Below are positions 2,669 through 28,990 of a stretch of DNA of 64,000 bases, piece by piece. A model generated the notes under the pieces. It had not been told where the DNA came from and ran no database searches. It worked only from the letters and a program-made list of their open reading frames with translations. The stretch covers positions 7,255-71,254 of the forward strand of contig CAYRVS010000007.1 in NCBI GenBank assembly GCA_964427725.1, in the 5' to 3' direction. The DNA comes from an uncultured Planctomycetaceae bacterium (GTDB lineage Bacteria > Planctomycetota > Planctomycetia > Planctomycetales > Planctomycetaceae). The position numbers and the translations under genes were made by a program. How positions within the stretch are numbered: the first letter of the stretch is position 1; every line of letters starts with the position of its first letter.

Positions 2669-2762
2669 GGAGGCTTTGTCGAGCGACCGCACTGGCGCAG
2701 CCGGTGGCACACGGTACTAAGCCCGTGGCACACCGCGGTTGCCGACGAACACGATGTAAGAA

Positions 2763-2784
2763 CCCCGGGGATGTCACCCCGGGG
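2763..2784 (-). terminator. Hairpin downstream of the DapA-family gene
   Basis: CCCCGGGG-ATGTCA-CCCCGGGG. On the minus strand it is followed by TTCTTAC. It sits about 35 nt after the stop at 2817. Confidence 0.4.
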
Positions 2785-2816
2785 CTTCATCAGGTGATGT
2801 GATCGTGACGTGGTGT

Positions 2817-3860
2817 TTACGCCATGCCGCGGCGTTTGAGTTCGCCGACGACCGCTTCCACGATGCGGCTGACCTCCGCCGGATTTCCTGACGGTTGACC
2901 GACTCCATGGGGTTGTCCCGAGACCGTGCAACCACCGGCCGGTTCGTCGGTGAAGCCATGCGCGGCGAGGAGGCATTGCAGGCGCTCGCCGAGTTTGGCG
3001 AGTTCGCGCTGTTGTTCCTCGGAGATCGGTTGGCGACCGACGCCGGTCTCGAACCCGCGCAGCCGGACCGCCGTGCGGAAGCCGTCGGGGAACTCGCTCG
3101 AAAGAATCATCGCGTCGAAGAGCTCGACGATGTCGTATTGCAGTTCCCGCGCCGCGGAAAGCTGCTCCGCCAGGGTCAACTCATACAGCTTGATGAGCAG
3201 TTCCGGGGCGACCCCGGAGGTGGCGTTGGTTCCGCCGTCGCAGCCCACGAGCAGCATCGGCATCAGGGCCGCGTCCCAACCGGTGAGGAAACTGAAGTCG
3301 GGCCGTTGCGGCCGGACGGCGCGAATCATCCGAATCATGTGCGGAATGTCGCCCGAGGAATCCTTGATGCCGATCACCTTGGGGCATTCGTCGGCGAGCC
3401 GCTGCACCGTGGGGACGTCGATCGGGCTGGCGAACAACGGAATGTTGTACAGGGTGACGTCGATCGGCGTGTGATCGGCGATCTCCTTGAAGTAGGCGTA
3501 AACCGCGCGGGGACTCAGCTTGAAATAGTACGGCGCGACGATGGCGACGGCGGCGGCCCCCAGTTCGTAATACTTCTCGCAGGCCCGCAGCGTCTCTTTG
3601 ACATTCGCCTCGGCGGCCCCCGCCAGGACCGGGACGCGGCCGTTCACCTGATCGCAGATGATCTCCATGATGCGGACCCGTTCCTCGACGGTGAACCGGG
3701 TGAATTCCCCGGTCGATCCGTTGGGGTAGAGTCCATGGATTCCCTTGGCGATCAGCCAATCGACGTAGCGCCGGAGTTCGCGCTCATGAATTTCGCCGTG
3801 GTCGTCGAGCGGGACGATGTTGGGGGTGAAGATCCCGCGGAGTTTGGCCTGACTGTGCAT
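2817..3860 (-). CDS. Dihydrodipicolinate synthase (DapA/NAL) family lyase
   Basis: 347-aa [21 protein letters not shown] and IGIKDSSGD (Schiff-base Lys context) are class I aldolase DapA-family signatures. Confidence 0.8.
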
Positions 3861-5652: not shown

Positions 5653-6684
5653 ATGAGGAACCCACCCAGGCACCCGCGTTGGATCGCCGCGTGCCTGGGA
5701 GGGTGGCTCGCGTGCGTGGCCGCGGCCCGATCCGAGGATCGCGTCGTCTTTCAACCCGCCGGGCAAAGCGGTCGCGTCACGATGGCGGGGTTGATTCAAG
5801 ACTACACCGGCCGCGAGCTCGTCCTCCTCACGCGGGTGGGGGAAGGCCGCAAACGGATCCCCGCGCGCGAGGTCGTGGAAGTCACCACCAGCTATGTCGC
5901 CGCGCATGAACGTGGCCGCCGCGAGCTGGAATCGGGCGAGCTCGTCGCCGCGCAAGGGAGCCTCATGAAGGCGCTGGACGACGAAGAGCGGGCCTGGGTT
6001 CGGCGGGAAATCCTCGCCCTCCTCGCGCAGCTCGCGATTCGTCGCCGCGACTATGTGCAAGCGGGGACGCGGACGTTGGCGATCATCGAATCGGATCCCA
6101 CCACGCCCCATTATCAACTCTTGCCGCTCGTGTGGACCGAGACCCCGCCCGCCGCGGTCCCCATCGAAGCCCGCAGTTGGATTCGATCCGATGCCCGCGC
6201 CACGCGGCTCTTGGGGGCGAGCTGGCTCTTGACCAGCGACGAGCGGCCCCTCGCCGAACGGACGCTTGAAGACCTCGCCACCGACACCGACCCGGCGATC
6301 CAACGACTCGCCCAAGGTCAGCAGTGGCGGTTGCGACTCGGTCGCGACGACCTCTCGGTCGAGGGCCTCCGGCAATGGGAGCGGCAACTGGCATCGTGGG
6401 CCCCGGAATGGCGACCGGGGGGCTACTTCCTCATCGGGCGCGGATACGCCGAATTGCAGGAATGGCTCCCCGCCGCCGCCGCCTGGATGTGGCTTCCCAC
6501 CGTCTATCCGCAACGGCGTGATCTGACGGCGACGGCGCTCCTGTCGGCGGGCGTGGCCCTCGCGGCGGCCGGCGACACCCCCGCCGCGATCCGTCTCGCC
6601 CGCGAAGTCACCACGTACTACCCGGAGTTCCCGCAGGCCGAAACCGCCCGCGATCTGATCACGAAATGGATGGGCTCCCCTTGA
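5653..6684 (+). CDS. Hypothetical secreted protein (helical-repeat-like)
   Basis: 343-aa ORF with N-terminal WIAACLGGWLACVAAARSED, which looks like a signal peptide. The overlapping minus-strand ORF 5602..6690 is Arg/Gly/Pro-rich and looks spurious. Confidence 0.5.
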   Translation: MRNPPRHPRWIAACLGGWLACVAAARSEDRVVFQPAGQSGRVTMAGLIQDYTGRELVLLTRVGEGRKRIPAREVVEVTTSYVAAHERGRRELESGELVAAQGSLMKALDDEERAWVRREILALLAQLAIRRRDYVQAGTRTLAIIESDPTTPHYQLLPLVWTETPPAAVPIEARSWIRSDARATRLLGASWLLTSDERPLAERTLEDLATDTDPAIQRLAQGQQWRLRLGRDDLSVEGLRQWERQLASWAPEWRPGGYFLIGRGYAELQEWLPAAAAWMWLPTVYPQRRDLTATALLSAGVALAAAGDTPAAIRLAREVTTYYPEFPQAETARDLITKWMGSP

Positions 6685-6718: not shown

Positions 6719-9031
6719 TCATTTCACCGTCTCGACCTCCAACCCCACATCGATGAACTGTCCGCCGCCGGTTTGATGGCAATGGACCGCCAGCACGTTC
6801 GTCCCCACCCGCAACGCCTCCCGCGCCACTTCCGACAGCCGCAGCGACTTGTACTCGGTCGTGTACCCCCCGGTCTGCTTAATCAAGACGCCGTTGAGAT
6901 GGACGGTCGCCTCCTCATCGTGATGGATTCGTAACCGCAACGCCCCTTCCGGCAACTTCTCGAGCGTGAACTCGCGACGGGCCCAGATGTCGGGCGTTTT
7001 CCACTCGGTCCCCACCTTGCTCCCCGGCGTCGACGGTTCCCCGAATCCGCCGCGGCCTGCACGCCATGTCGCCGCGTCGAATTCGGGCTCTTCCCAGCCT
7101 TCCGCCGGTGTCTCGGTCACATACCGCCACATCGCGGGGGTCTCTTCGGCGGTCGGGACGAGCGTTCGCCGAACGGTCTCGCGCGGCGACCACAACGCCT
7201 GATGCGCCTTGGCCAGAACGTCGACCGGCAACTTCTCGATCGCCCGGTCATACGTCATCAGCCCGTTGACCTCGATCTCGACGTCGGTCGTCTGCGTGTA
7301 GATCGCCGCCGACAGGCCCTGCCGCACGAGCGCCGGGAGTTGATCGACGAGGTCGAGATAGGCGTCGGTCAGCGCCGCCTGCGTCGTGAAGCTGCGATAG
7401 CCCCAGTTCTGCTCGTCCTGCCAGGTGTGCCTCTTCAGCGGCAATCCCAGCCCGCCATATTCCCCCAGCACCCCCGCGCGAGTTGCCGACGGCGCGACCA
7501 TCGTCGGCCCCGGATAACGATGGATGTCGATCACGTCCCCCACCGGGAAGTCGTTTCCTCCCGATGCGCAATTCACCAGCCGTGATGGATCGTACTCTTT
7601 GGTCCACTGGGTGACGGCGACGGTGTCGGCCTGACCCCAGGCCTCGTTGAAGGGAACCCACATCACGATCGACGGATGGGGCCGCAGCGCGTCGATGATC
7701 CGTTGCCATTCGGTCCGATAGTTCGCCGCCGACTCCGCGGTCCGGGTGATCTCGGTCCCATCATGACCGCCGAACGGATCCCATGCCGCGTGGCGATCGC
7801 CGTTGGGCATGTCCTGCCAAACGAGCATCCCGAGCTCGTCGCAATACCGATACCAGCGCGCGGGTTCGACCTTCACATGCTTGCGGATCATGTTGAAGCC
7901 GTATCGCTTGGTCTGCTCGATGTCGAACTTCAGCGCGGCGTCGGTCGGCGCGGTGTAAAGCCCATCCGGCCACCACCCCTGATCGAGCGTCCCATATTGA
8001 AACAACGGCTCGTTGTTGAGCAGGATCCGCAGGATCCCCCGGTCGTCTTTTCCGAGCGATATCTTGCGGTGGGCGAAATAGGTCTGCACGACGTCAAGCA
8101 CCCGGCCCTGCTTGTCGAGGAGCTTCAGCTCCATATCGATCAGCCGCGGGGTCGCTGGGCTCCACAAGACCTTGCGGTACTCGGGCGAACTGCTCATCCC
8201 CACCGGCTGTCGATTCTTCGCCGGCAGCGTATAGGTTCCCTCGTACCGCGCGCCACCCAGCGAGTAACTCGTCCGGACGGCGATGTGCGTGACGTCCTCG
8301 CCGGCGTAATCGACCCACAACGACGCGGTGTCGCGATCGATGTCGGGGGTCACCACCACGCTGCGCACATGCGACTTCGGCACCGGTTCCAACCACACCG
8401 TCTGCCAGATCCCCGTCACCGAGGTGTACCAGATGCCGTTCGGCTTGCGGACCTGCTTGCCGCGCGGCTGGTACCCGTCGTCGGTGTTGTCGACGACCCT
8501 GATCACGAGCTCCTGCGTCGCGTTCGATTCGGGCCGAAGCGCCGAGGTGATGTTGAATGAGAACGGGTCATAACCGCCGCGATGTAGGCCGATTTCCCGA
8601 CCATTGACCCAGACCGTCGCCTCCCAATCGACCGCGCCGAACTGCAGCAGCACCTCTTGGCCGGTCCACGCCGCGTCCGTGGGAACCGTGAACGTGCGGC
8701 GGTACCACAGCGCCTGCCCGGGCGCGACCGGCTGCATCACCCCGGAAAGGGCCGACTCGATCGCGAACGGGACCAGAATCTCCCCCTCCCACACGGCGGG
8801 AGGCGTCCGCTCCGCGACGGGAGCGAGGGCGTACTGCCACAGCCCGTTCAAGTTGAGCCATGCGGGCCGGACCAGTTGCGGCCGCGGATATTCGAGATGG
8901 ACGGTCTCGGGCGCGACGTCGCCGGCCCAGCGGGTCATCAGCGGAGCCCGCTTCGGGGTCCATTCCGCGAACGCAACGGAAGTGCCGGCGACACTGACAA
9001 CCAGACTCAACAACCACGCGGAGGCGCGCAT
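6719..9031 (-). CDS. Glycoside hydrolase family 2 (beta-galactosidase/beta-glucuronidase-like) with an extra C-terminal jelly-roll-like domain
   Basis: The track ORF is trimmed to the ATG at 9031 (MRASAWLLSLVVSVAGTSVAFA signal peptide). GFNMIRKH, WVPFNEAWGQ and TDVEIEVNGLMTYDR are GH2 TIM-barrel-type motifs. Confidence 0.8.
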   Translation of the reverse strand: MRASAWLLSLVVSVAGTSVAFAEWTPKRAPLMTRWAGDVAPETVHLEYPRPQLVRPAWLNLNGLWQYALAPVAERTPPAVWEGEILVPFAIESALSGVMQPVAPGQALWYRRTFTVPTDAAWTGQEVLLQFGAVDWEATVWVNGREIGLHRGGYDPFSFNITSALRPESNATQELVIRVVDNTDDGYQPRGKQVRKPNGIWYTSVTGIWQTVWLEPVPKSHVRSVVVTPDIDRDTASLWVDYAGEDVTHIAVRTSYSLGGARYEGTYTLPAKNRQPVGMSSSPEYRKVLWSPATPRLIDMELKLLDKQGRVLDVVQTYFAHRKISLGKDDRGILRILLNNEPLFQYGTLDQGWWPDGLYTAPTDAALKFDIEQTKRYGFNMIRKHVKVEPARWYRYCDELGMLVWQDMPNGDRHAAWDPFGGHDGTEITRTAESAANYRTEWQRIIDALRPHPSIVMWVPFNEAWGQADTVAVTQWTKEYDPSRLVNCASGGNDFPVGDVIDIHRYPGPTMVAPSATRAGVLGEYGGLGLPLKRHTWQDEQNWGYRSFTTQAALTDAYLDLVDQLPALVRQGLSAAIYTQTTDVEIEVNGLMTYDRAIEKLPVDVLAKAHQALWSPRETVRRTLVPTAEETPAMWRYVTETPAEGWEEPEFDAATWRAGRGGFGEPSTPGSKVGTEWKTPDIWARREFTLEKLPEGALRLRIHHDEEATVHLNGVLIKQTGGYTTEYKSLRLSEVAREALRVGTNVLAVHCHQTGGGQFIDVGLEVETVK

Positions 9032-9204
9032 GGGGGTTTCCTCGAAGGATGGTTCCTTGGTGTGATTTCTCGGCATAGAGAGTAACCATTTCCGGCATTT
9101 CGGGCGAATCCCCCTCGCGACAACCATTCTCAATCCGTCTGTGATCTCGCGAAGGTCGAGAATCCCGAAGCTCGACAACGGACCGTGTCACTTCGAGATG
9201 GCTG

Positions 9205-9921
9205 CTATCGCGACGTCAGCCATGGCATGAGCCCCGGCAGACCGATCGACTCCCGGCTCGCCAGCGGTTCGCCGTACTTCTTGCCGATCGACCAGCCCCA
9301 GTAACGGGCCCGGTCGTGAATGTCATCCAGTGGCGTGGGGAACTCCGGTGACTTCCCGATGAGGAACTGACTCTCATAACAGCGGACCGCGTCCATTTTG
9401 CGGTCCATCACGTCGCTGATGTCGACGACGAACGCCGGTTGCGGATGAATCCGTAGATGGATGCTCCAGAAATAGAAGATCGTGGGGGGATGATACGGTT
9501 CCCCCGCGAGATCGGTCCGCGTCAACTTGGCCCAGAAGCGGGCGTCGTCACAGAGTCGACTCGCGACGACATGATCAGGATGGGCATCGTCCCAATACGG
9601 GGCGAGAATCACCCGGGGCCGCGTGACCCGAAAGACTTCCGCCAACAACCGACGCGCCTCGAGCGTCCCTTCCAGCTTGCGATTCGGCAGCCCGAGAGTG
9701 TGCCGCCAATCGAGCCCCAGCACCCGTGTGGCGGACGCCGTCTCCCGCGCGCGCAACGCGGGACTCCCATGCGGCGTCGGTTCCCCATCGGTCAGTTCCA
9801 CGACCCCCACGCGCAGGCCTTGCCCCTTCGAGACGAGGAGCGTCCCGCCGACGCTGATCTCGGCGTCATCGGGATGCGGCGCGACGACCAACACATCCAG
9901 CGGCGTCTCGGGCGGTTTCAT
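9205..9921 (-). CDS. PIG-L (LmbE/BshB-like) family N-acetylglucosaminyl deacetylase
   Basis: 238 aa. [19 protein letters not shown] and HPDH are the PIG-L zinc-binding motifs. Confidence 0.8.
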
Positions 9922-9940
9922 CGATTTCCCAATACAGAGT

Positions 9941-10124
9941 AGGAACCACGAAACACACGAAATGACACGAACGAATCTTCAACTGGTGCCACCGGAGGCT
10001 CGATGGTGATTCTCGGCAAATACGGTGAATCATTCGTCGTGTCGCGAATGTTGTCGCTGTGAGTGAGCCATCATCCCGTCGTCTCGGAGTTGTTCCATGC
10101 CGTTTCGCGTATTTCGTGGTTCAT
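9941..10124. repeat. CACGAAA-rich imperfect inverted repeat (MITE-like), family copy 1
   Basis: The left arm AGGAACCACGAAACACACGAAATGACACGAACGAATC pairs with the right arm ...CGTTTCGCGTATTTCGTGGTTC. The GGAACCACGAAACACACGAA core recurs at 63285-63310 and inverted at 63505-63527. Confidence 0.55.
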
Positions 10125-18290: not shown

Positions 18291-18618
18291 AAGGGTCGCC
18301 GAAAAGGTCGGGCCGATCGGTGGTGGTGGCGGTTTGGCGCGCAGCCGGTGCGCGATTGGACTGCACGATCCTCTAGCAAACGGCGTGCTGTCAAATGGGG
18401 GCTGACATCTGATCGACAATCCTTTCTAGTCGATATCCCGTATTCCATTACTAGAAATAGACTTGCGATGGAATCATGGGGCCACGATGTGACCGAAAGC
18501 CTGACGGCGAATGCGCAGCCTTTCGACATGACGCTCGTTGATTAGGCAGGTTGCGAAGGCCACGAAGGTTCCGAGGTCTCGTCCGACGGTTCCTGAAAAA
18601 AGATTTTGACATCACTTG

Positions 18619-18647
18619 TTGTGAATAATCAAAAGTCTGGCTATACT
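18619..18647 (+). promoter_or_regulatory. Sigma-70-like promoter candidate upstream of the sufR-like gene
   Basis: TTGTGA (18619-18624), a 17-nt spacer, then TATACT (18642-18647), inside an unusually AT-rich ~250-bp divergent intergenic region. Promoter rules for this phylum are poorly known. Confidence 0.3.
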
Positions 18648-18660
18648 TTGTCAGTCTCGC

Positions 18661-19374
18661 GTGGCGACGGTTGTTCCAACACGTGACACAACGAGACGTG
18701 GAATCGAGATACGTATGCGCCCCGCCCTCGATGAAGGTGATCAGGATTTCCTGCAACTTCTGCACGGGCGGGGCGATTCGACCATCCAAGAACTGTGTGA
18801 CGCGGCCGGGGTCACCGCGACGGCGATTCGGCAACGGTTGGCCCGACTCCTTGACCTGAATCTGGTCGAGCGAGTCGCCATTCGCACTGGTCGGGGTCGG
18901 CCCCACCATAACTATCGCTTAACCGATGTCGGCCGTCAGTCCCTGGGGGACAATTACGGCGAGCTGGCCCGGTTGTTGTGGGATCAGATCCAGGCGATTC
19001 CCGCCGGGCCGGTCCGGGATCGCCTGCTGGATGGCCTGAAGGACGAGTTCGCGAAGCGGCTCGGGGCGGCGGTGAATGGCGGGACGATCGATCAGCGGCT
19101 GGTTCAGCTCAAGTCGGCTTTGGAGGCTCGCGGCTTCGACGTGCAGGTGGATCAGGATTCGGAAGGCCCGTCGATTTTGCGCGAGCGATACTGTCCCTAT
19201 CACGAGCTCGCGGTCGCCGACCGGCGGATTTGTGATTTGGAACAGCAGGTCTTCGAGCAGATTCTGGGGGCCCCGCTGGAATTGCTGCAGAGTTGTCGTG
19301 ATGGGGGATCGTGCTGCGAGTTTCGGGTCGCCGAGCCGACGGCGGATTTGCGGGTCGGCCCATCGGTGGGCTAA
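18661..19374 (+). CDS. Winged-helix transcriptional regulator with a C-terminal Cys cluster (SufR-like)
   Basis: 237 aa (alternative ATG at 18715). The wHTH is STIQELCDAAGVTATAIRQRLARL. The C-terminal Cys residues are RYCPYHELAVADRRICD...QSCRDGGSCCEF. It sits at the head of the suf locus. Confidence 0.5.
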   Translation: MATVVPTRDTTRRGIEIRMRPALDEGDQDFLQLLHGRGDSTIQELCDAAGVTATAIRQRLARLLDLNLVERVAIRTGRGRPHHNYRLTDVGRQSLGDNYGELARLLWDQIQAIPAGPVRDRLLDGLKDEFAKRLGAAVNGGTIDQRLVQLKSALEARGFDVQVDQDSEGPSILRERYCPYHELAVADRRICDLEQQVFEQILGAPLELLQSCRDGGSCCEFRVAEPTADLRVGPSVG

Positions 19375-19466
19375 ACTGTAAGTCCGATCATGGCTGGGGT
19401 CTCCACCCACCGAAACCGCACACCGCCCGCCCGTCACCCCTCGTTCGACCCAAGAAGTGAGCGACC

Positions 19467-20024
19467 ATGACAACCTGGATCGAAGGCCGCTTCGAAGAAA
19501 ACGTGATCATGACGTCGCTGGAGCAGGCGACGAACTGGGCGCGGCAATCGAGCATTTGGCCGATGACCTTCGGCCTGGCCTGTTGTGCGATCGAGATGAT
19601 GGCGACCGGAGCGAGTCGGTATGACCTCGATCGATTCGGCGCGGGGGCCTTCCGCGCGACACCGCGGCAGGCCGACCTGATGATCGTCGCCGGGACCGTG
19701 ACCTACAAGATGGCGAGTCGCGTGCGACGGTTGTACGAACAGATGCCCGACCCCAAGTATGTGATCGCGATGGGGGCGTGCACCGTGGGTGGTGGTCCCT
19801 ATTTCAAGCATGGCTATCATGTGGTCAAGGGGGTCGACCTGGTGGTGCCGGTCGATGTGTATGTCCCCGGTTGTCCCCCGCGGCCGGAAGCCTTGCTCGA
19901 AGGCCTCATGCGGATTCAGGACAAGATCAAGGCGAAGAAACTGACGCGGTCGAGCCAGGAAATCCTGCCGATTCCGCATCACACCGGCCGCGTGCAACTG
20001 CCCGCCGACCTGGCGGGAGTCTGA
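19467..20024 (+). CDS. nuoB: NADH-quinone oxidoreductase subunit B (NuoB/NQO6) homologue, not next to other nuo genes
   Basis: 185 aa. [23 protein letters not shown] and [12 protein letters not shown] are the N2 [4Fe-4S]-ligating motifs of NuoB. Confidence 0.85.
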
Positions 20025-20143
20025 CCTCGACGACGTTTCGCCCCTCACGGCCGAGTGGTCGCGAACGAGCTTGGAAGTTGATCCCAAAACGGACGGCGGC
20101 AAGGACTGCAAGTCGCCGATGAGAGAGAAGGTACGTCCCGACC

Positions 20144-20968
20144 ATGACCAGCGTTCTGGAAATTCGTGATCTGCATGTCGCCGTCGATCAGGCTCCGATT
20201 CTGCGGGGCGTCAATTTGACCCTGCGGCAAGGGGAAACCCATGCCTTGATGGGGCCGAACGGCTCGGGCAAAAGCACCCTCGCTTATGCCCTTGTGGGGC
20301 ATCCCAAATACGAAATCACCGGCGGGTCGATCGCGGTCGATGGGACCGACATTCACGAATGCGATCCATGTGAGCGGGCCCGGCTGGGGCTGTTTCTCGC
20401 CTTCCAGTATCCGGTCACCATCCCCGGCGTGAAGGTGGCCGACTTCCTGCGGCATGCGGTGACGAACATCCGCAACCCGAACCGCAAGGAGGGGGAAGGC
20501 CTGATCCCGATGCGCGACTTCCGCAAGGAGCTCCGCGCGCGGATGGAAGAACTCAACATGGATCCCGAGTTCGCCCGTCGTTATCTGAACGAAGGCTTCT
20601 CCGGCGGCGAGAAAAAGCGGATGGAGATTCTGCAGCTTGCCATGCTGCAGCCGAAGTTCGCGATCCTGGATGAGACCGACAGCGGGCTCGACAGCGACGC
20701 CGTCCGCGTGGTCAGCGAAGGGCTGAAGAAGTTGTCGGGCCCGCAGATGGGTTCGCTGATCATCACGCATCACGAGCGGCTGCTGGAGTACAATATCCCG
20801 CAGTACACGCACGTGATGCTCGCCGGAAAGATCGTCGAAACCGGCGACGCCCAGTTGGCCCATGAGCTCCATAATCACGGCTACGCCGCCGTCCGCGAAC
20901 GGCATCCGGTGGAGGCCGCGGAGGAACAGGAACGCCAGAAAACGCTGATCGGGGCGGGAGCGGAGTAA
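20144..20968 (+). CDS. sufC: Fe-S cluster assembly ATPase SufC
   Basis: 274 aa. It has Walker A GPNGSGKST, NEGFSGGEKKR and Walker B AILDETDSGLD, the canonical SufC layout. Confidence 0.95.
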   Translation: MTSVLEIRDLHVAVDQAPILRGVNLTLRQGETHALMGPNGSGKSTLAYALVGHPKYEITGGSIAVDGTDIHECDPCERARLGLFLAFQYPVTIPGVKVADFLRHAVTNIRNPNRKEGEGLIPMRDFRKELRARMEELNMDPEFARRYLNEGFSGGEKKRMEILQLAMLQPKFAILDETDSGLDSDAVRVVSEGLKKLSGPQMGSLIITHHERLLEYNIPQYTHVMLAGKIVETGDAQLAHELHNHGYAAVRERHPVEAAEEQERQKTLIGAGAE

Positions 20969-20992
20969 GTTCGAGCCGCAAGGGAAAGGAGC

Positions 20993-21730
20993 TTGGAGAT
21001 GTCTCCTGTCATGACCAAGCATGTCGTAGCGAAACCTGCTCGGTCCCGAGTTGTCGAGACGTTGCGCGCCATGTCTACGGTCGTGACCATGCGTGACATC
21101 CTCACCCGACTGGGAGGGATCGCGCCGGAACGCGTGCGAATGAAGCCCGTGCCCGGGGCTGCTCGTCAAAAAGATTTGCTGGATCCCGAGCAGCGAGCCG
21201 GCGCGCGAATGGAGCTCATTGACGGCGTGCTGGTGGAGAAGCTTCCGATGGGTTGGTTTGAGTCGATCCTGGCAGGAGTTTTGGCCGGACGGATTCGGTC
21301 GTATCTTGAACTTCACAACATCGGCACGATGTCCGCCAGTGGTGATGGGTTCCTCAAACTGCGCCCGAATACCATTCGTGTTCCCGATCTGGCGGTCGTC
21401 CTCTGGGAACGAATTCCCGACCGAAAGAATGTACGGACACCCTGTCCGGAATACGTTCCGGATCTCGTCGTGGAAGTCTTAAGCAAGGGCAATCGTAAAC
21501 GCGAACTCGAACGGAAACGACAAGACTTTTTCGCCCACGGGACGCGGCTGTTCTGGATCGTTGATCCGCGGAAGCAGACCGTGACGGTTTATCACGAGGT
21601 CGAGCGCGGCGTGACGCTGGGACTCGACGAGGAATTATCCGGCGAAAACGTGTTGCCCGGATTCAAGCTGAGCATTCGGGAATGGTTCCAGGTCGCCGAG
21701 GATGGGACCAGGCCACCCAAGAAGAAATAA
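20993..21730 (+). CDS. Uma2 (DUF820) family PD-(D/E)XK nuclease-like protein, copy 1
   Basis: ELIDGVLVEK...VPDLAVV...PDLVVEVLSKGN...LFWIVDP...VTVY is the Uma2 pattern. The likely start is ATG 20999, preceded by GGAAAGGAG. Confidence 0.8.
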   Translation: MEMSPVMTKHVVAKPARSRVVETLRAMSTVVTMRDILTRLGGIAPERVRMKPVPGAARQKDLLDPEQRAGARMELIDGVLVEKLPMGWFESILAGVLAGRIRSYLELHNIGTMSASGDGFLKLRPNTIRVPDLAVVLWERIPDRKNVRTPCPEYVPDLVVEVLSKGNRKRELERKRQDFFAHGTRLFWIVDPRKQTVTVYHEVERGVTLGLDEELSGENVLPGFKLSIREWFQVAEDGTRPPKKK

Positions 21731-21790
21731 GCACCGCATTCATTCCCCTGACGATCGCGACGATCAGCAGGCCATGAAGGATCGAGCAGC

Positions 21791-23206
21791 ATGTCCACCG
21801 AAACTCCGACCGCCGATGCGATTGGCGTGGGCGACTATCAATACGGGTTCCACTACGGCACCGACGACTACGTCTTCCGGGGCCGCAAGGGACTCAACCG
21901 CGAAGTCGTCGCGCAAATCTCCGAGATGAAGCGCGAGCCGCAATGGATGCGCGACTTCCGGCTGGAGGCCTTGGAGATCTTCGAACGGAAGCCGATGCCC
22001 CACTGGGGGGGCGACATGTCGGAGCTCGATTTCCAGGACATTTTCTACTACGTCCGCGCGTCGGACAAACAGGAAAAGAGCTGGGACGATCTCCCCGCCG
22101 ACATCAAGAAGACCTACGACCGGCTGGGGATCCCCGAGGCGGAGAAGAAGTACCTCGCCGGCGTGAAGGCGCAATACGAGTCGGAAGTGGTCTACGGCAG
22201 CCTGCAGGAAGATCTCGCCAACAAGGGGGTCATCTTCACCGATACCGATTCGGCCTTGCGTGATCATCCCGACCTGATGCGGGAGCACTTCGGGACGGTG
22301 ATTCCGTCGTTCGACAACAAGTTCGCCGCGCTCAACTCGGCGGTCTGGTCGGGCGGGTCGTTCATTTATGTGCCGAAGGGGGTGCAGATCGAGTTCCCGC
22401 TGCAGGCTTATTTCCGGATCAACTCCGAGAACATGGGGCAGTTCGAGCGGACGCTGATCATCGTCGACGAAGGGGCCTCGGTCCATTACGTCGAGGGTTG
22501 CACCGCGCCGACCTACAGCTCGGAAAGTCTTCACTCGGCGGTGGTCGAGATCATCGTGAAGCGCGGCGCCCGCTGCCGCTACACCACCATCCAGAACTGG
22601 TCGAGCAACGTCTACAACCTCGTCACCAAACGGGCGATGGCCTACGGCGACTCGTTGATGGAATGGGTCGACGGAAACCTCGGCTCGAAGTTGACGATGA
22701 AGTACCCGGCGATCTACCTGATGGAACCGGGGGCCCGCGGCGAGACGCTGTCGATCGCCTTCGCCGGCAAGGGTCAGCATCAGGACGCCGGCGCCAAGAT
22801 GGTTCACTGCGCCCCGCACACGTCGAGCCGGATCATCTCGAAGAGCATCTCGAAAGGGGGCGGCCGTTCGAGCTATCGCGGCTTGGTGAAGGTCCAAGGG
22901 GACGCGCATCACTGCAAGTCGAACGTGGTCTGCGACGCGTTGATTCTCGATTCGGACAGCCGCAGCGACACCTACCCGTATATCGAGGTCGATCAAGACA
23001 ACGTGGCGATCGAGCACGAAGCGTCGGTCTCGAAGATCGCGGAGGAACAACTGCTGTACCTGATGAGCCGCGGCCTGACCGAGCCGGAGGCGTCGGCGAT
23101 GATCGTCACCGGGTTCATCGAGCCGCTGGTGAAGGAGTTGCCGATGGAGTACGCGGTGGAGATGAACCGGCTGATCGAACTGCAGATGGAGGGGAGCGTC
23201 GGCTGA
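21791..23206 (+). CDS. sufB: Fe-S cluster assembly scaffold protein SufB
   Basis: 471 aa. [10 protein letters not shown]...VEGCTAP...IQNWS...[11 protein letters not shown]...HCAPHTSS are highly characteristic SufB blocks. Confidence 0.95.
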
Positions 23207-23274
23207 TGGCGGGGGCATGATACCGTTCATCGGATGCGGCACCCATCATGGTCCGCAACGGGTGATCAAGGTCC

Positions 23275-23913
23275 GTGTCCCGCAAGGGAATCAGAGAGAA
23301 TTTCATGTCCGCCGTCTCCCTCCGAGTCATGAGCCTGCCGGAATACTTGGCGTTCGATCGCACCGCGACGGGACGACATGAGTTTCTTCGCGGCAAGATC
23401 TACGCCATGGCCGGTGCTTCGGCCAATCATGTGCGCATCAACCGCAACCTCACCACACAATTGACGGCCATCCTGCAAGGATGCGATTGCGAACATTTTC
23501 CGACCGACTTGCGCGTGGTGTGCCCATCGGGACTTTACACTTACCCGGACATGAGCATCGTCTGCGGTGAGCCGGAGTTCGCGGATGGAATCAAGGACAC
23601 CCTGAGAAACCCCACGGCCTTGATCGAGATCTTGTCTCCCGGAACGGAAAAGTATGATCGGGGCGACAAATTCGACAACTATCGGTCGATTGACAGCCTG
23701 CGGGAGTATGTCTTGATCGCGCAGGATCGGTGCCGGATCGAGGTCTTTCGCCGAGAGTCGACCCTCGCGGTTTGGGAATGGACCGCATATCACAATCTGT
23801 CGGAGACCGTGCAACTCGCCACGGGACACATTTCCATCCCCGTGGCCGCGATTTACCACCAAGTGACCTTCGAGACCGCATCCGAACCGACCGTTGAGAC
23901 CCTGCCGTCTTGA
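23275..23913 (+). CDS. Uma2 (DUF820) family PD-(D/E)XK nuclease-like protein, copy 2
   Basis: HEFLRGKIYAMAGASANH...YPDMSIVCGEP...ALIEILSPGTEKYDRGDKFDNYRSIDSLREYVLIAQD is the cyanobacterial-type Uma2 pattern. An alternative ATG lies at 23305. Confidence 0.85.
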   Translation: MSRKGIRENFMSAVSLRVMSLPEYLAFDRTATGRHEFLRGKIYAMAGASANHVRINRNLTTQLTAILQGCDCEHFPTDLRVVCPSGLYTYPDMSIVCGEPEFADGIKDTLRNPTALIEILSPGTEKYDRGDKFDNYRSIDSLREYVLIAQDRCRIEVFRRESTLAVWEWTAYHNLSETVQLATGHISIPVAAIYHQVTFETASEPTVETLPS

Positions 23914-23930
23914 TCTTTGATTGAAGCCCG

Positions 23931-25238
23931 ATGACGACCACAACCACAATGACACCTTGGTCCGCCCCCGCTTTCGAGGCGTCGCTCGCCGGTCGCGAGG
24001 AATCGCACTGGATGAGCGAGCGCCGCCAGGTGGCGTTCGAGATTTTCCAGGCGAAGCAGCGGGGGCCGCTCGATCCCGAGGAGTTTCGCCGGCTCGACCT
24101 GCGCGCCTTGCGGCCGGAGCGGTACGCCCCGCAAACGGTCGACGCGGCGTCCACCTTCGCCACGCTCATGGCCGATCGCGCGGAGTTCGCGGGCCTCGTC
24201 TCGCACGTCAACGGGCATTGCGTGAAAGCCCAACTGGCGGACGAGCTCGCGGCCCGGGGCGTCTTCTTCGGCAGCCTGCACACCTTCGCCGCCAAGCATC
24301 CCGAAGTTCTGCAGCAGAACCTCGGCCGCGCGGTGAATCTGGAGACCGACCGCTTCTCGGCGTGGCATTCCGCGTTCTGCACCGGCGGCGCGGTCCTGTA
24401 TGTCCCCCGGAATGTCGAGATCAAGTCGCCGCTCTACAGCCTGATCGGACTGGCGACCGACGGAGCCGCCGATCTATCGCATACGCTGGTGATCCTTGAG
24501 GACGGCGCGTCGGCGACACTGCTGGAGGAGACCAGTTCCGCTTCGCCGACGGCAAGCGGCCTGCATCTCGGCGCGGTGGAACTGCTGTTGGGTTCGGGGG
24601 CGAATCTGCGTTATGTGCAACTGCAAAACTGGAACGACAAGGTGTGGCATCTGGCGCATCAATCGGGCCGGGTGGCGCGCGACGCCGCGCTGCAATGGAC
24701 GGTCGGCGGACTCGGCGCGAAACTGGCCCATATCCATCAGGACATTCATCTCGATGGTCGCGGTTCCTCGGCGGAAGTGAACGGGGTCACGTTCGCGACC
24801 GAGCGGCAGGTGATCTCCTACTACACCCAGCAGGACCATCACGCCCCGGACACCCGCAGCGATCTCCTTTACAAGGACGTGCTCCGCGACCGGGCGCGGG
24901 TCATCTGGCGGGGGATGATCAAGGTCGATCCCGGGGCGCAGAAGACCGACGGCTATCAGCGGAACGATGGGCTGATGATGAGCGATACCTGCCGGGCCGA
25001 CCTCATTCCCGGGTTGGAAATCGAAGCGGATGACGTCCGCTGCACCCACGGCGCGACCGCCGGCCGGGTCGATGAAGAGCAGCTGTTCTACGGCATGTGC
25101 CGCGGTCTGACGCGGTCGGAGGCGATGCACATGATCGTGGAAGGGTTCTTCCAGCGGGTCTACGACCGGATCCCGGTCGAACTGGTCCGCGAGACGCTCA
25201 GCCAAGCCGTGCAGAAGAAGCTGGGGCTGGCGGAGTGA
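23931..25238 (+). CDS. sufD: Fe-S cluster assembly protein SufD
   Basis: 435 aa with the SufB/SufD beta-helix pattern (NLRYVQLQNW...HLDGRGSSAEVNGV...DTRSDLLYK...DVRCTHGATAG...LFYGMCRGL). It lies after sufB. Confidence 0.85.
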   Translation: MTTTTTMTPWSAPAFEASLAGREESHWMSERRQVAFEIFQAKQRGPLDPEEFRRLDLRALRPERYAPQTVDAASTFATLMADRAEFAGLVSHVNGHCVKAQLADELAARGVFFGSLHTFAAKHPEVLQQNLGRAVNLETDRFSAWHSAFCTGGAVLYVPRNVEIKSPLYSLIGLATDGAADLSHTLVILEDGASATLLEETSSASPTASGLHLGAVELLLGSGANLRYVQLQNWNDKVWHLAHQSGRVARDAALQWTVGGLGAKLAHIHQDIHLDGRGSSAEVNGVTFATERQVISYYTQQDHHAPDTRSDLLYKDVLRDRARVIWRGMIKVDPGAQKTDGYQRNDGLMMSDTCRADLIPGLEIEADDVRCTHGATAGRVDEEQLFYGMCRGLTRSEAMHMIVEGFFQRVYDRIPVELVRETLSQAVQKKLGLAE

Positions 25239-25260
25239 TGCCGAACACAAGGAGTCACCC

Positions 25261-25902
25261 ATGAGTGCCGAGCTGCTGACGATGCCGTCCGTGGTGACGG
25301 ACGATCCTCCCGTGACGTATCTGGACGCGTCGTGCAACGGGTTGGAGCTCTCGCCGGAAGAGTATGACGCGATCACCGATTACGACGAGGATTATCGTTA
25401 CGAGCTGATCCATGGGGTGGTGATCGTGAATCCGATTCCGTCCGAAGGTGAAACCGATCCCAATGGCCAGCTTGAGTACCTGCTGCGAACTTATCGTGAG
25501 CGGCATCCGCGAGGCGAGGCGTTGGACGCCACGATGTTCGAGCGTTACGTCCACTTGCCCGAAGGCAGCCGCAGGCGGGCCGACCGCGTCATCTGGGCGG
25601 GTTTGGGACGACGGCCGAACCCCGGCACCGACATCCCGACGATCGTCGTCGAGTTCGTCTCGCCGGCGAAACGCGATCAACACCGCGATTATGTGGTGAA
25701 ACGCCGCGAGTACCTCGCCGCCGGCGTGAAGGAGTACTGGATCATCGATCGGTTTCGCGGCACGCTGACCGTCTGCCGCGGCGATGCGGAAATCATCATC
25801 CGCCGCGGCGGGCAATACACGACGCCGCTGCTGCCTGAATTTATCCTGCCGCTGGATGCTCTCCTCAGCGTCGCCGATCGCTGGCGGGATGCGGACGCCT
25901 GA
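25261..25902 (+). CDS. Uma2 (DUF820) family PD-(D/E)XK nuclease-like protein, copy 3
   Basis: YELIHGVVIVNP...RRADRVIW...IPTIVVEFVSPAKRD...EYWIIDRF...LTV. An AAGGAG Shine-Dalgarno sequence lies 6 nt before the ATG. Confidence 0.8.
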   Translation: MSAELLTMPSVVTDDPPVTYLDASCNGLELSPEEYDAITDYDEDYRYELIHGVVIVNPIPSEGETDPNGQLEYLLRTYRERHPRGEALDATMFERYVHLPEGSRRRADRVIWAGLGRRPNPGTDIPTIVVEFVSPAKRDQHRDYVVKRREYLAAGVKEYWIIDRFRGTLTVCRGDAEIIIRRGGQYTTPLLPEFILPLDALLSVADRWRDADA

Positions 25903-25913
25903 GCTTTGAAACT

Positions 25914-26666
25914 TTGAGAACTGCGACAGACTCCATGACGAGCACTTGGGAACGTGTGGCTGACGTGTCGGAACTCCCGCCGGGGGGGCGGAAGTCGATT
26001 TTCGTCGATGACCTTCCCGTCCTGCTGGTGCGGATCGGCGAGCAATACTTCGCCGTCGAGGATCTCTGCACGCACGACGGACAGCCCCTCACCGACGGGC
26101 CGTTGATCGACGGGGCCATCAAGTGTCCGCGGCACGGCGCGCGGTTCGACCTGGCCTCGGGGAAGGCGTTGTGCATGCCTGCGACCGAAGGGGTGCGGAC
26201 TTTCGCCGTGGAGGTCCGGAGCGACGGCGTCTACGCCGCGCCGCACGGAGCGACGCCGACCGTCTTGGCGGCAAGTCATGTCGCGGCCGCTCCCGCGACC
26301 TCGTCCCCCACCACGACGACACCGGCGGCCCCCGCGACCGAAGATCCCAACGCGGGGAGCCTCGACGAGGTCAACGACGGAGAAATCATCGAAGCGTTGC
26401 GGCAGGTGATCGACCCCGAATTGATGGTCAACATCGTCGATCTTGGCCTGGTCTACGCGATCAATCACGGGAACCGCAAAGCCCAGATCGACATGACCCT
26501 CACCAGCCCCGCCTGCCCCGCCGGACCGCAGATCGTCTCGCAGGCGAAGATGGTGATCGAACGCCTGCCGGGGATCGACGAGGCGACGATCAAGCTGACG
26601 ATGTCGCCGCCGTGGACGCCCGATCGGATGACCGACGAGGCGCGTGATCAGCTGGGGTTCTTTTAG
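25914..26666 (+). CDS. Rieske [2Fe-2S] ferredoxin fused to a DUF59/SufT (MIP18-family) domain
   Basis: The N-terminal half has CTHDG...CPRHG (Rieske ligands). A Pro/Thr/Ala linker follows. The C-terminal half has IIEALRQVIDPEL.VNIVDLGLVY...LTSPACP, the DUF59 signature. An alternative ATG lies at 25935. Confidence 0.8.
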   Translation: MRTATDSMTSTWERVADVSELPPGGRKSIFVDDLPVLLVRIGEQYFAVEDLCTHDGQPLTDGPLIDGAIKCPRHGARFDLASGKALCMPATEGVRTFAVEVRSDGVYAAPHGATPTVLAASHVAAAPATSSPTTTTPAAPATEDPNAGSLDEVNDGEIIEALRQVIDPELMVNIVDLGLVYAINHGNRKAQIDMTLTSPACPAGPQIVSQAKMVIERLPGIDEATIKLTMSPPWTPDRMTDEARDQLGFF

Positions 26667-26671
26667 CTCAA

Positions 26672-26693
26672 ACCCCGGGAAGGCCTTCCCCGG
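26672..26693. repeat. Variant of the palindromic intergenic element (CCCCGGGAAGGCCTTCCCCGGG)
   Basis: Perfect 22-nt palindrome 6 nt after the Rieske-SufT stop. It has the same GGGAAGGCCTTCCC core as the copies at 30731 and 53468. Confidence 0.65.
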
Positions 26694-26749
26694 GCATCCG
26701 CGTGGTCACGATTGCAAAGGCCCCGCGCACCGGCGATCCTGCCCCTTGA

Positions 26750-28990
26750 GTGGGAGCATCGCCGGGCGGAAGGGGCATCTTGAACGGGGCTGGGGGGGAT
26801 CGAACGTGGGGCATCCACCAGGCACGGTGGTTGCCGGTCTTGGCGCTGGTCCTTGCCGCGTGGGCCGCTCCCTACGCCCAACGACTCACTTTCGATCAAT
26901 CGATCGAGTCCCTGTTCGCCGATGACAACCCGCGGCTCACCCAGTTCCGCCGCAGTCGCGCCTGGTTCGGCGGCGACGAGTTCGTCATCCTGGCCTATCG
27001 CGATCCGGAGCTCTTCACCGCCGAGGGGGACCTGTCCGACCGGGCGATCGAACGGCTCGACACACTGAAGAAACAACTCGCCGAGGTGCCGGGGATCGAT
27101 CCCGGAACGTTGCAGACCTTGGCCGACGCGCTGCGCGCCCCGTACGGCCGCCAACGGATTCGCGCCTTCGTCACGGGGTTGCTCGTGGGAGCCGATGGGA
27201 CATCGACGGCGATTGTCTCGCGGTTGCTGCCGGCGGATGAGTCCCCCGTCCCCCGCGCCGAGACCTTTCGCCGGGTCCGTGAAGTCGCGGCGAGTCACCA
27301 GCCCCCCGCCCTCGTCGTGGGCGAGCCGATTCAGGTCCACGACATGTTTCGCTACGTCGAAGAGGACGGAGCGACGCTCGGTTGGTGGTCGTGGCTGCTG
27401 CTCATGCTGGTGATCCTGATTCTGTTCCGCAGCCTGTGGTGGATGGTGCTGCCGCTGCTCGTGGTGTTTGTGACGCTGGAGTGGACGAAGGGGCTGTTGG
27501 TCATCGGTCGTTTCGAATTGAGCATGGTCAGCTCGATGCTCAATTCGTTGACGACGATCATCGGCATCGCGACGGCGATGCATTTCACGCTGCGGTTCCG
27601 CGATCTGCGCGCCGAGCATGACCGGCCCGAGGCGGTCAACCGGACGGTCCGGGAACTCGCCGGGCCGGTCTTTTGGACGGTGGCGACGACAGCGGCGGGG
27701 TTCGCGGCGCTGATGTCGAGCTCGATCGCCCCCGTCGCGAGTTTTGGACTGATGATGACCCTGGCGACAGTCCTTGTCTTGGTCGCGGCGGCGATGATTC
27801 TCCCCGGCGGCGCAATGCTCGGCCCGACTGCCGCCGTTCCCGCCATCGGGCCGGGCGAACGCTGGATCACGCGACGGTTGGGGGCGCTCGCCGAAATGTT
27901 GGAGCGCCGGCCGAAATCGATCGCCTTACTGATGCTGGTGATCGCGGTCGGGGCGTCGCTGGGCGTCGGTCGGCTCGAGCTGGAGACCGACTTCAGCAAG
28001 AACTTCCGCGCGAACAGCCCGCTGGTTCGGGCCCTCGACTTCTTCGAGACGAACCTCGGCGGGTCGGGGACGTGGGAGCTCAACTTCCCGGCCCCCGCCG
28101 AGCTGACCGAGGAGTATCTCGACCAGGTCCGCGCGATGGCCGAGAAACTGCGCGCCCTGGAGGCCCGCACCACGCCCGATCGGCTCACCAAGCTCGTGGT
28201 CCTGACCGATGGGCTCGACATGATTCCGACGAACGTCCTGTTCACGCGGCTGTCGCTGGCCACGCGCATGAATCTGCTGAACGCCGTGCAACCCGACTTC
28301 GCCGTCGGGCTGTACAACCCCGGCGAAGGGCGGATGCGGATCATGCTGCGGTCGCTCGAACGGCAACCCGCCGCGAGCAAACTGGCGCTCATCCGGGACG
28401 TGGAACGAATCGGCCGCGAGACCTTCCCCGAAGCGGAGGCGACCGGGTTGTTCGTGCTGCTGGCCTATCTCATCGAAAGCCTGATGGACGATCAGCTCAC
28501 GAGCTCGCTGCTCGCGGCGGCGGCGATCGTGATCCTCATGACCATCGCGGAACGAAGCCTGCGGCTGGCGGTGGGTTTGTTGTTGCCGAACGTCTTTCCG
28601 ATCGTGCTGGTGCTGGGGGCGATGGGCTGGCTCGACCTGAAGGTCAACATCGCGACGGCGATGATCGCCAGCGTGTCGATGGGGCTCACGATCGATTCGA
28701 GCATTCACTATCTGGCGGGCTATCGCCGGAGTCGCCGCGGCGGGGCGACCGTGGCCGCCGCGCTGAAGCGAACCCATGAGGATACGGGACTCGCCTTGGT
28801 GTGGGCGAATGTCGCGCTCATATTGGGGTTCAGCGTCCTCACGCTGTCGCACTTCATCCCGCTGGTCTATTTCGGGGTGCTGGTCAGCGTCGCGATGATC
28901 GGCGGCCTGATCGGCAACCTGATCCTGTTGCCGCTCCTCATCCGCTGGGTTGATCACGACGCGGCGGCGGGGTCATCCCAGGTCGTGTGA
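26750..28990 (+). CDS. MMPL / RND-superfamily exporter
   Basis: 746 aa with a GTG start. It has two repeated halves, each with a soluble loop followed by about 5 hydrophobic helices (LLMLVILILFRSLWWMVLPL... and AAAAIVILMTIAERSLRLAVGLLLPNVFPIV...), which is typical MMPL topology. Confidence 0.75.
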   Translation: MGASPGGRGILNGAGGDRTWGIHQARWLPVLALVLAAWAAPYAQRLTFDQSIESLFADDNPRLTQFRRSRAWFGGDEFVILAYRDPELFTAEGDLSDRAIERLDTLKKQLAEVPGIDPGTLQTLADALRAPYGRQRIRAFVTGLLVGADGTSTAIVSRLLPADESPVPRAETFRRVREVAASHQPPALVVGEPIQVHDMFRYVEEDGATLGWWSWLLLMLVILILFRSLWWMVLPLLVVFVTLEWTKGLLVIGRFELSMVSSMLNSLTTIIGIATAMHFTLRFRDLRAEHDRPEAVNRTVRELAGPVFWTVATTAAGFAALMSSSIAPVASFGLMMTLATVLVLVAAAMILPGGAMLGPTAAVPAIGPGERWITRRLGALAEMLERRPKSIALLMLVIAVGASLGVGRLELETDFSKNFRANSPLVRALDFFETNLGGSGTWELNFPAPAELTEEYLDQVRAMAEKLRALEARTTPDRLTKLVVLTDGLDMIPTNVLFTRLSLATRMNLLNAVQPDFAVGLYNPGEGRMRIMLRSLERQPAASKLALIRDVERIGRETFPEAEATGLFVLLAYLIESLMDDQLTSSLLAAAAIVILMTIAERSLRLAVGLLLPNVFPIVLVLGAMGWLDLKVNIATAMIASVSMGLTIDSSIHYLAGYRRSRRGGATVAAALKRTHEDTGLALVWANVALILGFSVLTLSHFIPLVYFGVLVSVAMIGGLIGNLILLPLLIRWVDHDAAAGSSQVV

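Follow-up and report, generated by a model that had tools for sequence, protein, structure and literature searches.

Gap-specific Uma2 genes in a Planctomycetaceae suf operon are probably promoter-less accessory cassettes

The DNA stretch analysed here, hereafter the window, comprises 64,000 nucleotides from an uncultured Planctomycetaceae bacterium (assembly GCA_964427725.1, contig CAYRVS010000007.1, positions 7,255 to 71,254). At 18661-26666 it carries a suf operon for iron-sulfur (Fe-S) cluster assembly, in which three consecutive intergenic gaps each hold a different gene of the Uma2 family. These genes, designated U1, U2 and U3, are probably promoter-less single-gene cassettes encoding accessory nucleases, selfish or toxin/defence-like in character, that reside in the suf gaps and are not components of the Fe-S machinery. 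The evidence comes from the occupancy of the same gaps in related genomes, the exchange of one cassette between near-identical operons and the distribution of Uma2 relatives elsewhere.

The operon consists of nine co-oriented open reading frames (ORFs) on the plus strand, in the order sufR-like, nuoB-like, sufC, U1, sufB, U2, sufD, U3 and Rieske-SufT. This order, with short gaps, had been proposed in an initial annotation made from the letters of the sequence, and every ORF was found where that annotation had placed it. By ORF coordinates, the spacings flanking the Uma2 genes are 24, 60, 68, 17, 22 and 11 nt; the gaps span 11-98 nt once the likely true starts are taken, and U1-U3 each have their own ribosome-binding site. 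All three genes lie on the plus strand and score far above the PF05685 bit-score cut-off of 27. U1, in the sufC-sufB gap, occupies 20999..21730 (E = 1.2e-30, 106.6 bits); its ORF opens at TTG 20993, and ATG 20999, behind AAGGAG at 20986-20991, is the likely start. U2, in the sufB-sufD gap, occupies 23305..23913 (E = 1.5e-31, 109.7 bits). Its ORF opens at GTG 23275, and ATG 23305 is taken as the likely start because a 202-aa database protein (P0001) begins there, matching U2 at 100% of the residues they share, and the orthologues begin with M-S-A/T. U3, in the gap between sufD and the Rieske-sufT gene, occupies 25261..25902 (E = 5.8e-20, 71.9 bits) and starts at ATG 25261; the AAGGAG motif reported ahead of it is present at 25249-25254. 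The matches cover positions 9-171 (U1), 2-160 (U2) and 2-170 (U3) of the 172 positions of the profile.

The three proteins are highly diverged. BLASTP aligned U1 and U3 with 30% identity over 132 aa (E = 6e-9), and the U1-U2 (E = 0.18) and U2-U3 (E = 0.24) matches are not significant. This divergence rules out a recent tandem duplication as the origin of U1-U3, as the initial annotation had already argued. Judged from their residues, the products are intact PD-(D/E)XK proteins of the 'PD-EXX-K' kind, i.e., putative nucleases, under purifying selection. In an alignment of 25 sequences representing all types (numbering of U2 from ATG 23305), G30, D82, E108 and K122 are invariant and S111 is nearly invariant. 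A check of the catalytic D/E/K residues found them kept in U1, U2 and U3: the active site matches the PD-EXX-K arrangement, with Asp after a beta-strand, Glu in an E-x-x(S) motif and Lys displaced into the following helix. U2 has the conserved His of the family, and U1 and U3 carry the Ser/Thr variant. Both the PD-EXX-K site that defines Uma2 and this variant of the His were described by Feder and Bujnicki (2005; PMC551604). A profile of the U1-U3 proteins matches the solved structures 9y1l, 6okh, 3ot2 and 1wdj of the PDB, which are the nearest and are all annotated as uncharacterised. The best structural relative, 9y1l (profile E = 3e-30), is deposited as a 'putative restriction endonuclease domain-containing protein', and no paper describing 9y1l was found. 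All three proteins also match PDC-S03, a candidate single-gene defence family of PADLOC (E = 1e-19, 3e-23 and 7e-18). The GC content at third codon positions (GC3) is 0.66 for U1 and 0.73 for U2; overall, the Uma2 genes have 0.66-0.77 vs. 0.79-0.88 for their neighbours, with the same trend in relatives. The composition of the Uma2 genes is thus foreign or weakly adapted.

Related suf loci were collected by scanning species-representative genomes and metagenomes with SufD and by looking up exact proteins. The 165 loci obtained, 149 of them distinct, are referred to below by L numbers where they need to be told apart. The taxon-labelled ones are nearly all from Planctomycetaceae, including Schlesneria, Planctomicrobium, Thalassoglobus and further lineages of the family. 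The metagenome scan yielded no additional close relative of the window, its best hit having 78% SufD identity. The core order sufR, nuoB-like, sufC, sufB, sufD, Rieske/SufT is conserved in the related loci, and the occupancy of its gaps varies. Uma2 genes were found in none of 72 sufR-nuoB gaps, 2 of 77 nuoB-sufC gaps, 8 of 90 sufC-sufB gaps (plus 3 at contig edges), 14 of 113 sufB-sufD gaps and 9 of 105 sufD-sufT gaps. Other inserts of at least 300 bp numbered 3, 2, 10, 22 and 2 in the same five gaps. At each gap, therefore, Uma2 is absent from roughly three quarters or more of the related suf operons.

Where a Uma2 gene is present, its type always matches the gap. All 11 Uma2 genes located between sufC and sufB belong to the U1 type, the 14 loci that have Uma2 between sufB and sufD all carry the U2 type there, and the eight typed Uma2 genes between sufD and sufT are all of the U3 type; the two Uma2 genes of the nuoB-sufC gap form a fourth type. 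The comparison of suf loci across the family thus found the same gaps to hold Uma2 genes in a subset of relatives, with a separate lineage in each gap. The locus L010 (chromosome OW818684.1) has two tandem U2-type genes, 8720-9322 and 9356-9958, in a single sufB-sufD gap. They group together with 91% bootstrap, which indicates that they were duplicated in place and have since diverged.

In a tree of SufB and SufD, all 11 loci grouping with the window hold at least one Uma2 gene, in differing combinations. The Schlesneria group, which neighbours the group of the window in this tree, has Uma2 in none of its 13 loci, and three more distant loci hold one to four Uma2 genes. A search for decayed Uma2 relics in empty or mid-sized gaps, conducted with a hidden Markov model on three-frame translations (E < 0.01), found none.

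The initial annotation had held that the strict alternation of suf and Uma2 genes is hard to put down to chance, and this view is borne out. The flanks of the 149 loci, 1.30 Mb in total, contain four Uma2 ORFs, so that the operon is about 17-fold enriched per base. At the flank density, about 0.025 Uma2 genes are expected per 8-kb operon, and the probability of three or more is about 3e-6. Chance is excluded because the relatives hold the same Uma2 type in the same gap. Elsewhere in the window, the DNA is of the ordinary housekeeping kind for a planctomycete, and no additional Uma2 gene is present.

The most direct view of the history of these genes comes from L081, a metagenome contig and the nearest relative retrieved. 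Between the window and L081, SufB is 100% identical at the amino-acid level, with a proportion of synonymous differences (pS) of 0.183; SufD is 96% identical (pS 0.215) and SufT 96% identical (pS 0.167). U3 is 87% identical with a pS of 0.340, about twice that of the flanks, and U2 is only 56% identical with a saturated pS of 0.705. At the nucleotide level, the two sequences are about 95% identical as far as the sufB stop codon, 35-70% identical in 23209-23957 and 92-95% identical from about 23958 onwards. The segment replaced relative to L081, delimited by this drop in identity, thus spans 23209..23957 on the plus strand and comprises a spacer, U2, a second spacer and the first nine codons of sufD. 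Divergence in place cannot give a ten-fold excess of synonymous change within one gene; hence, the U2 cassette was replaced. The two alleles are of the same type and separated long ago, and constraint at the protein level acts on both; the ratio of nonsynonymous to synonymous change (dN/dS) is about 0.18 for both U2 and U3. The centre of U3 (25413-25652) has 63-82% identity to L081, and the gene ends and flanks have 85-100%. This central divergence could reflect partial gene conversion or local diversifying change.

Recombination has affected the suf genes themselves. The loci L016 and L083 group with the window in the SufB tree (89% bootstrap), with L011 and L091 in the SufD tree (100%) and with L089 in the SufT tree (95%). 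These conflicting, well-supported trees indicate that the operon is a recombination mosaic with breakpoints between genes, and since the suf genes are mosaic, their trees are unreliable for phylogeny in this group. The U1 and U2 distances are largely decoupled from the host distance measured with SufD, and those of U3 behave more like a clock, apart from one outlier. Among the loci, divergent hosts were not seen to share near-identical Uma2 copies. Three copies look damaged: the U1 of L002 has an in-frame deletion removing the E/K motif, the U2 of L003 has a frameshift and the U2 of L091 has a stop codon.

Uma2 relatives of the same types are found well outside suf operons. At 45-50% identity, U2 has homologues in Acidobacteria, Chloroflexi, Chlorobi and Pirellulales; homologues of U3, at about 60% identity, are spread across Planctomycetota. 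U2-type genes are also present on 50 plasmids, mostly cyanobacterial. No U2-type match was found in the phage collection and no U3 relative in the viral contig scan. Non-suf sites of U2/U3-type genes include a PIN/HTH island with tandem Uma2 genes (L085), a site adjoining DarT-Macro (L087), a site by gyrA (L088), a site between DUF1501 and PSCyt2/PSD1 genes (L170), a site beside transposases (L173) and two unremarkable sites. In Tautonia plasticadhaerens (L169, CP036426.1), a U3-type gene at 6001-6639 lies inside another essential conserved operon, plsX-fabD-[Uma2]-fabG-acpP-fabF. Among the eight non-suf contexts sampled, an operon interior is clear in two, a toxin or defence neighbour is present in another two, and the other four show neither feature. 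These contexts were also weighed for a general preference of Uma2 for operon gaps and do not establish such a rule. Likewise, the suf-gap U2 genes could not be accepted as a clade of their own, since 11 of 12 fall together in a plain neighbour-joining tree but with 23% bootstrap.

The suf gaps of relatives also hold genes unrelated to Uma2. The non-Uma2 ORFs comprise retropepsin-like aspartyl proteases (8), ParE (5), DUF4058 (2) and DUF4258 (2) proteins; Fic, a PhdYeFM antitoxin, an AAA_21/DUF4276 pair and a few ordinary enzymes (NUDIX, carbonic anhydrase) were found there too. In the Pfam tally, AAA_21 and DUF4276 each had a single match, probably from the larger inserts of L116 (2525-6000 and 7336-9203). 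The sufB-sufD gaps of the metagenome loci L142, L145, L149 and L151 contain pairs of ORFs of about 75-110 aa, typical of toxin-antitoxin modules. L083 has as many as five inserts, in the order sufC, protease, Uma2, sufB, protease, Uma2, sufD, Uma2, sufT.

After Uma2, the suf gaps are most often occupied by the retropepsin-like genes (PF13650/PF13975, about 130-170 aa). They were located at 2746-3165 and 5463-5981 in L083, where one stands ahead of each of two Uma2 genes, and at 7387-7869 in L030, 1680-2162 in L033 and 2263-2646 in L055. They may be another family of operon-dwelling accessory genes. DUF4058 genes occupy the sufB-sufD gap at 4524-5459 in L033 and 8465-8959 in L021. Their 'V-I-E-I-L-S-P...K' motif aligns locally with the Uma2 catalytic motif (E-x-L-S-P); the profile comparison of the two families was non-significant (probability 3.9%). 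In L009, the otherwise empty sufB-sufD gap (about 9755-10000, 231 nt) contains an inverted repeat, GGTCATGGCGTCTTCGA / TCGAAGACGCCATGACC, which may be a small palindromic element.

Consensus scanning for promoters and terminators covered 18300-27000. The sole plus-strand promoter match in this region, a sigma-70-like sequence at 18619..18647, is a consensus match only; it lies upstream of the first gene, in AT-richer surroundings (GC 0.51-0.56). Within the operon the scan found no promoter, and none of the gaps contains a convincing terminator. There was no Rfam match around the Uma2 inserts. Direct or inverted repeats flanking U1, U2 or U3 did not exceed chance expectation, and no transposase or integrase is among the 25 of 40 Pfam families listed for the ORFs of the window. 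With no terminal repeats or attC-like site at the inserts and no transposase or integrase among the families listed, the inserts were rejected as a transposon, insertion sequence or integron cassette. The 11-98-nt gaps beside U1-U3 contain no further ORF that could encode an antitoxin partner; U1-U3 thus have no adjacent small partner gene, and a type II toxin-antitoxin module was also rejected.

The reading of U1-U3 as accessory cassettes can be set out as follows. Each Uma2 lineage would have arrived once, long ago, in its own gap. Thereafter the cassettes would have been inherited, and homologous recombination, with the conserved suf genes as homology arms, would have exchanged them among lineages or removed them cleanly. 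Since a cassette flanked by sufB and sufD lands only between sufB and sufD, recombination of this kind would produce the match of type to gap. It would also lead to patchy presence, sharp replacement edges, mosaic suf trees and unrelated toxin genes in the same gaps, all without any nuclease specificity. The cassette would be read through from the operon promoter, and the host could not silence it without silencing SUF, so that only precise deletion would be survivable. Any benefit of the cassette might lie in toxicity, in defence or in recombination stimulated by DNA breaks.

This modifies one of the two alternatives raised by the initial annotation, which had proposed the repeated independent settling of selfish or hitch-hiking genes. 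The selfish or hitch-hiking character is favoured by the separate lineages, the toxin genes sharing the gaps, the many absences and the one replacement. The repeated independent settling, on the other hand, has to be refined: each gap has its own lineage, common to an entire group of genomes, which fits one old arrival per gap followed by inheritance, exchange and loss rather than recent independent hits.

Several points weigh against this reading. Many of the counted Uma2 copies share descent and do not stand for independent events. The U2 genes of the suf gaps fail to separate from non-suf homologues (23% bootstrap), and one arrival per gap is what we infer. Nothing at the suf inserts in the way of repeats, transposase or integrase accounts for the first insertion. 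Cassette replacement rests on one pair that is close enough, the window and L081; when the synonymous test was applied to other pairs (L016/L083, L001/L002 and others), the flanks were already near saturation and the pairs were uninformative. Co-transcription of U1-U3 with the suf genes is predicted from the layout only. The long retention at a dN/dS of about 0.18 fits a benefit to the host too. Finally, Uma2 genes are found inside three Fe-S-related gene clusters (hox, PFOR and suf), and it cannot be demonstrated that this is a coincidence.

Among the rival explanations, the likeliest is that the Uma2 genes are free-standing homing endonucleases, each lineage cutting the empty or rival version of its own suf junction in resident or incoming DNA, with repair from a filled copy bringing the gene in, much as the seg and mob genes of T4-like phages do. 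The nuclease fold with its intact catalytic residues would suit this, as would the fixed intergenic sites, filled or empty among relatives, with their perfect match of type to gap and their lack of repeats, transposase or integrase. The sharp-edged cassette replacement and the gene-tree conflicts around the gaps are likewise compatible with homing, the few decaying copies resemble a cycle of gain, decay and loss, and a homing-like mechanism has already been suggested for the Uma2 family (PMC551604). However, flank recombination alone accounts for the match of type to gap, and the ParE/Phd pairs, proteases and other non-nuclease genes in the same gaps show that the hotspot needs no site-specific nuclease. 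No conserved junction motif common to the filled and empty sites of relatives was seen, and the lack of near-identical Uma2 genes in divergent hosts speaks against a recent sweep. Same-type relatives sit at quite different sites in other phyla, and cleavage itself is putative; the four solved Uma2 structures are all annotated as uncharacterised. We therefore regard homing as possible but unlikely. The broader proposal, that Uma2 proteins are chromosomal homing-type nucleases, each lineage recognising the junction of two conserved genes and inserting itself or ousting a rival allele there when related bacteria recombine, that the suf operon is an arena of three or four lineages each holding a junction and that the family is a bacterial counterpart of the seg and mob genes of phages, is put forward with the same reserve, as a tentative idea.

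The second rival makes the Uma2 proteins a stress-coupled toxin or defence system of benefit to the host, produced from the SufR-controlled promoter when Fe-S clusters fail and causing growth arrest or acting against foreign DNA. The matches of U1-U3 to PDC-S03 are consistent with such a role, but PDC-S03 is a candidate system only. Uma2 was listed as a likely solo toxin by Makarova et al. (2009; PMC2701414), and relatives adjoin DarT-Macro and lie in a PIN/HTH island; still, no antitoxin or immunity partner gene is present in the gaps. The deep allelic divergence in a near-identical background resembles balancing or diversifying selection, and the dN/dS of about 0.18 indicates purifying selection. 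Against this, the phage and viral collections contain no relatives that would give a clue to a link with phages, and the entire Schlesneria group lacks Uma2 genes. Such a system is, in our view, doubtful.

The remaining alternative, that the Uma2 proteins are accessory factors working with SufBCD (e.g., regulators, chaperones or repair factors for Fe-S-dependent DNA enzymes), can draw on operon positions conserved in a group of genomes, on purifying selection and on the occurrence of Uma2 in two gene clusters for Fe-S enzymes, the hox hydrogenase operon and the PFOR cluster of Aquifex, but it is very improbable: most related suf operons lack Uma2, as do all Schlesneria loci, U2 was swapped for a 56%-identical allele while SufB stayed at 100%, genes of the same types are found in a fab operon and at other unrelated sites, toxins and proteases take the same gaps in other relatives, the Aquifex Uma2 protein is not in the PFOR complex and no column of the alignment has a Cys conserved across the U1, U2 and U3 types. 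The functional link of Uma2 to Fe-S or iron stress offered by the initial annotation is accordingly not upheld, given the close U2/U3-type relatives in unrelated contexts (fab, DUF1501/PSCyt, DarT-Macro and PIN/HTH).

The other genes of the operon, all on the plus strand, were assigned as follows. The first gene (18661..19374) encodes a SufR-like winged-helix regulator with weak HTH matches in Pfam and the same position in related loci; its match to SufR_cyano reaches 48 bits vs. a cut-off of 179, and the label 'sufR-like' thus rests on a sub-cut-off match. The genes of the SufBC2D core are all present as equivalogs, co-oriented and above the curated NCBIfam cut-offs: sufC (20144..20968; TIGR01978, 325.9 bits vs. 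212.8), sufB (21791..23206; TIGR01980, 727.8 bits vs. 346.4) and sufD (23931..25238; TIGR01981, 255.8 bits vs. 222). The last gene (25914..26666, with an alternative start possible at ATG 25935) is a fusion of Rieske (E = 4e-17) and SufT-like (FeS_assembly_P, E = 1.6e-18) domains. Both Pfam matches are above their cut-offs, and the SUF_assoc match behind the label 'SufT' reaches 97 bits, below its cut-off of 143. The window and its nearest relatives have the two domains as one fusion, and the Schlesneria loci compared (L004, L005, L009 and L034) have a separate ORF for each domain.

A stand-alone NuoB-like gene of the complex I 20-kDa subunit family is located between the regulator and sufC (19467..20024; Oxidored_q6 E = 1e-29; nuoB_fam TIGR01957, 241.8 bits vs. 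142.7). As read in L001-L080 and L089-L168, nearly all Planctomycetaceae suf loci covering the region have it, with about 79-96% identity, and its product may serve SUF in this family as an Fe-S carrier or scaffold partner that has gone unrecognised. No sufS had been noticed in the locus, and indeed no cysteine desulfurase was detected in the 64-kb window, either by tblastn with one class-V aminotransferase or among the 25 of 40 families listed in the Pfam tally. The sulfur donor (sufS, with sufE or sufU) is presumably encoded elsewhere. In many Planctomicrobium-type genomes (L012, L014, L017-L020, L025, L026, L031, L032 and others), a sufD homologue was found without sufB or sufC within 10 kb; the suf operon is thus split in those lineages.

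Uma2 is among the largest bacterial protein families without known function, and its random-looking insertion has left no experimental handle. The suf locus and its relatives provide one, with fixed filled and empty sites, one lineage per site, diverged alleles and a swap between near-identical genomes; the empty junctions of relatives are candidate substrates for cleavage and homing. Moreover, accessory genes such as those for Uma2, ParE, retropepsin-like and DUF4058 proteins can find a lasting refuge and a place of exchange in an essential, highly conserved operon. A gene inside a pathway operon may not belong to the pathway, which calls for caution in annotation.

In the literature, Uma2 (COG4636, DUF820) was proposed to be selfish, horizontally spread and possibly homing-like; the same study found insertion to be 'virtually random', with no recurrent neighbours, and put the family at more than 2% of the genes of Gloeobacter (PMC551604). 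U1-U3 are ordinary members of this family, scoring well above the Pfam cut-off and having the PD-EXX-K residues. What sets the suf Uma2 genes apart is that, in many genomes, they sit in fixed gaps of a single essential operon with one lineage to each gap, and that their hosts are Planctomycetaceae, whereas cyanobacteria were the hosts there.

The presence of Uma2 inside operons has been reported before. The hox operon of Synechocystis PCC 6803 has the order hoxEF-sll1222(DUF820)-hoxUY-sll1225/ssl2420(toxin-antitoxin)-hoxH and is co-transcribed, and similar neighbours are found near the hox genes of seven other strains (Kopfmann et al., 2016; PMC4963859). The pyruvate:ferredoxin oxidoreductase (PFOR) cluster of Aquifex holds the Uma2 gene aq_1194, the product of which was not detected in the enzyme complex (PMC10052474). 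No description of Uma2 genes in suf operons was found in the literature. In the hox and PFOR clusters, as in the suf operon, Uma2 is interspersed and co-oriented in a conserved operon for an Fe-S-containing machine, and toxin-antitoxin genes are found as well. However, those clusters have a single Uma2 gene, whereas three consecutive gaps are filled here and L083 has five inserts. Gap-specific lineages, allele turnover and a family-wide comparison were not reported there, unlike the replacement and mosaicism described here.

The type II toxin-antitoxin modules and solo toxins are also small, mobile and patchily distributed genes, and ParE/Phd modules occupy the same gaps in relatives; U1-U3, however, have no antitoxin partner, and the toxicity or defence function of Uma2 is putative. 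The seg and mob genes of T4-like phages encode free-standing homing endonucleases of the GIY-YIG and HNH families, for which cleavage and homing were shown experimentally. Like the suf Uma2 genes, they are intron- and intein-free nuclease genes between conserved genes, patchy and site-specific, with no repeats or transposase. Unlike them, Uma2 has a different fold, resides on a bacterial chromosome and has a putative activity. Integration hotspots between core genes, with their turnover of accessory and defence genes, normally lie between transcription units. They share with the suf gaps a variable cargo between conserved flanking genes, exchanged via recombination in the flanks, but the suf slots are internal to a single essential operon, and each slot takes just one promoter-less gene. 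Embedding of Uma2 in an operon thus has precedent; an essential operon with several such slots, one lineage per gap, and the replacement of a cassette were not found described in the literature.

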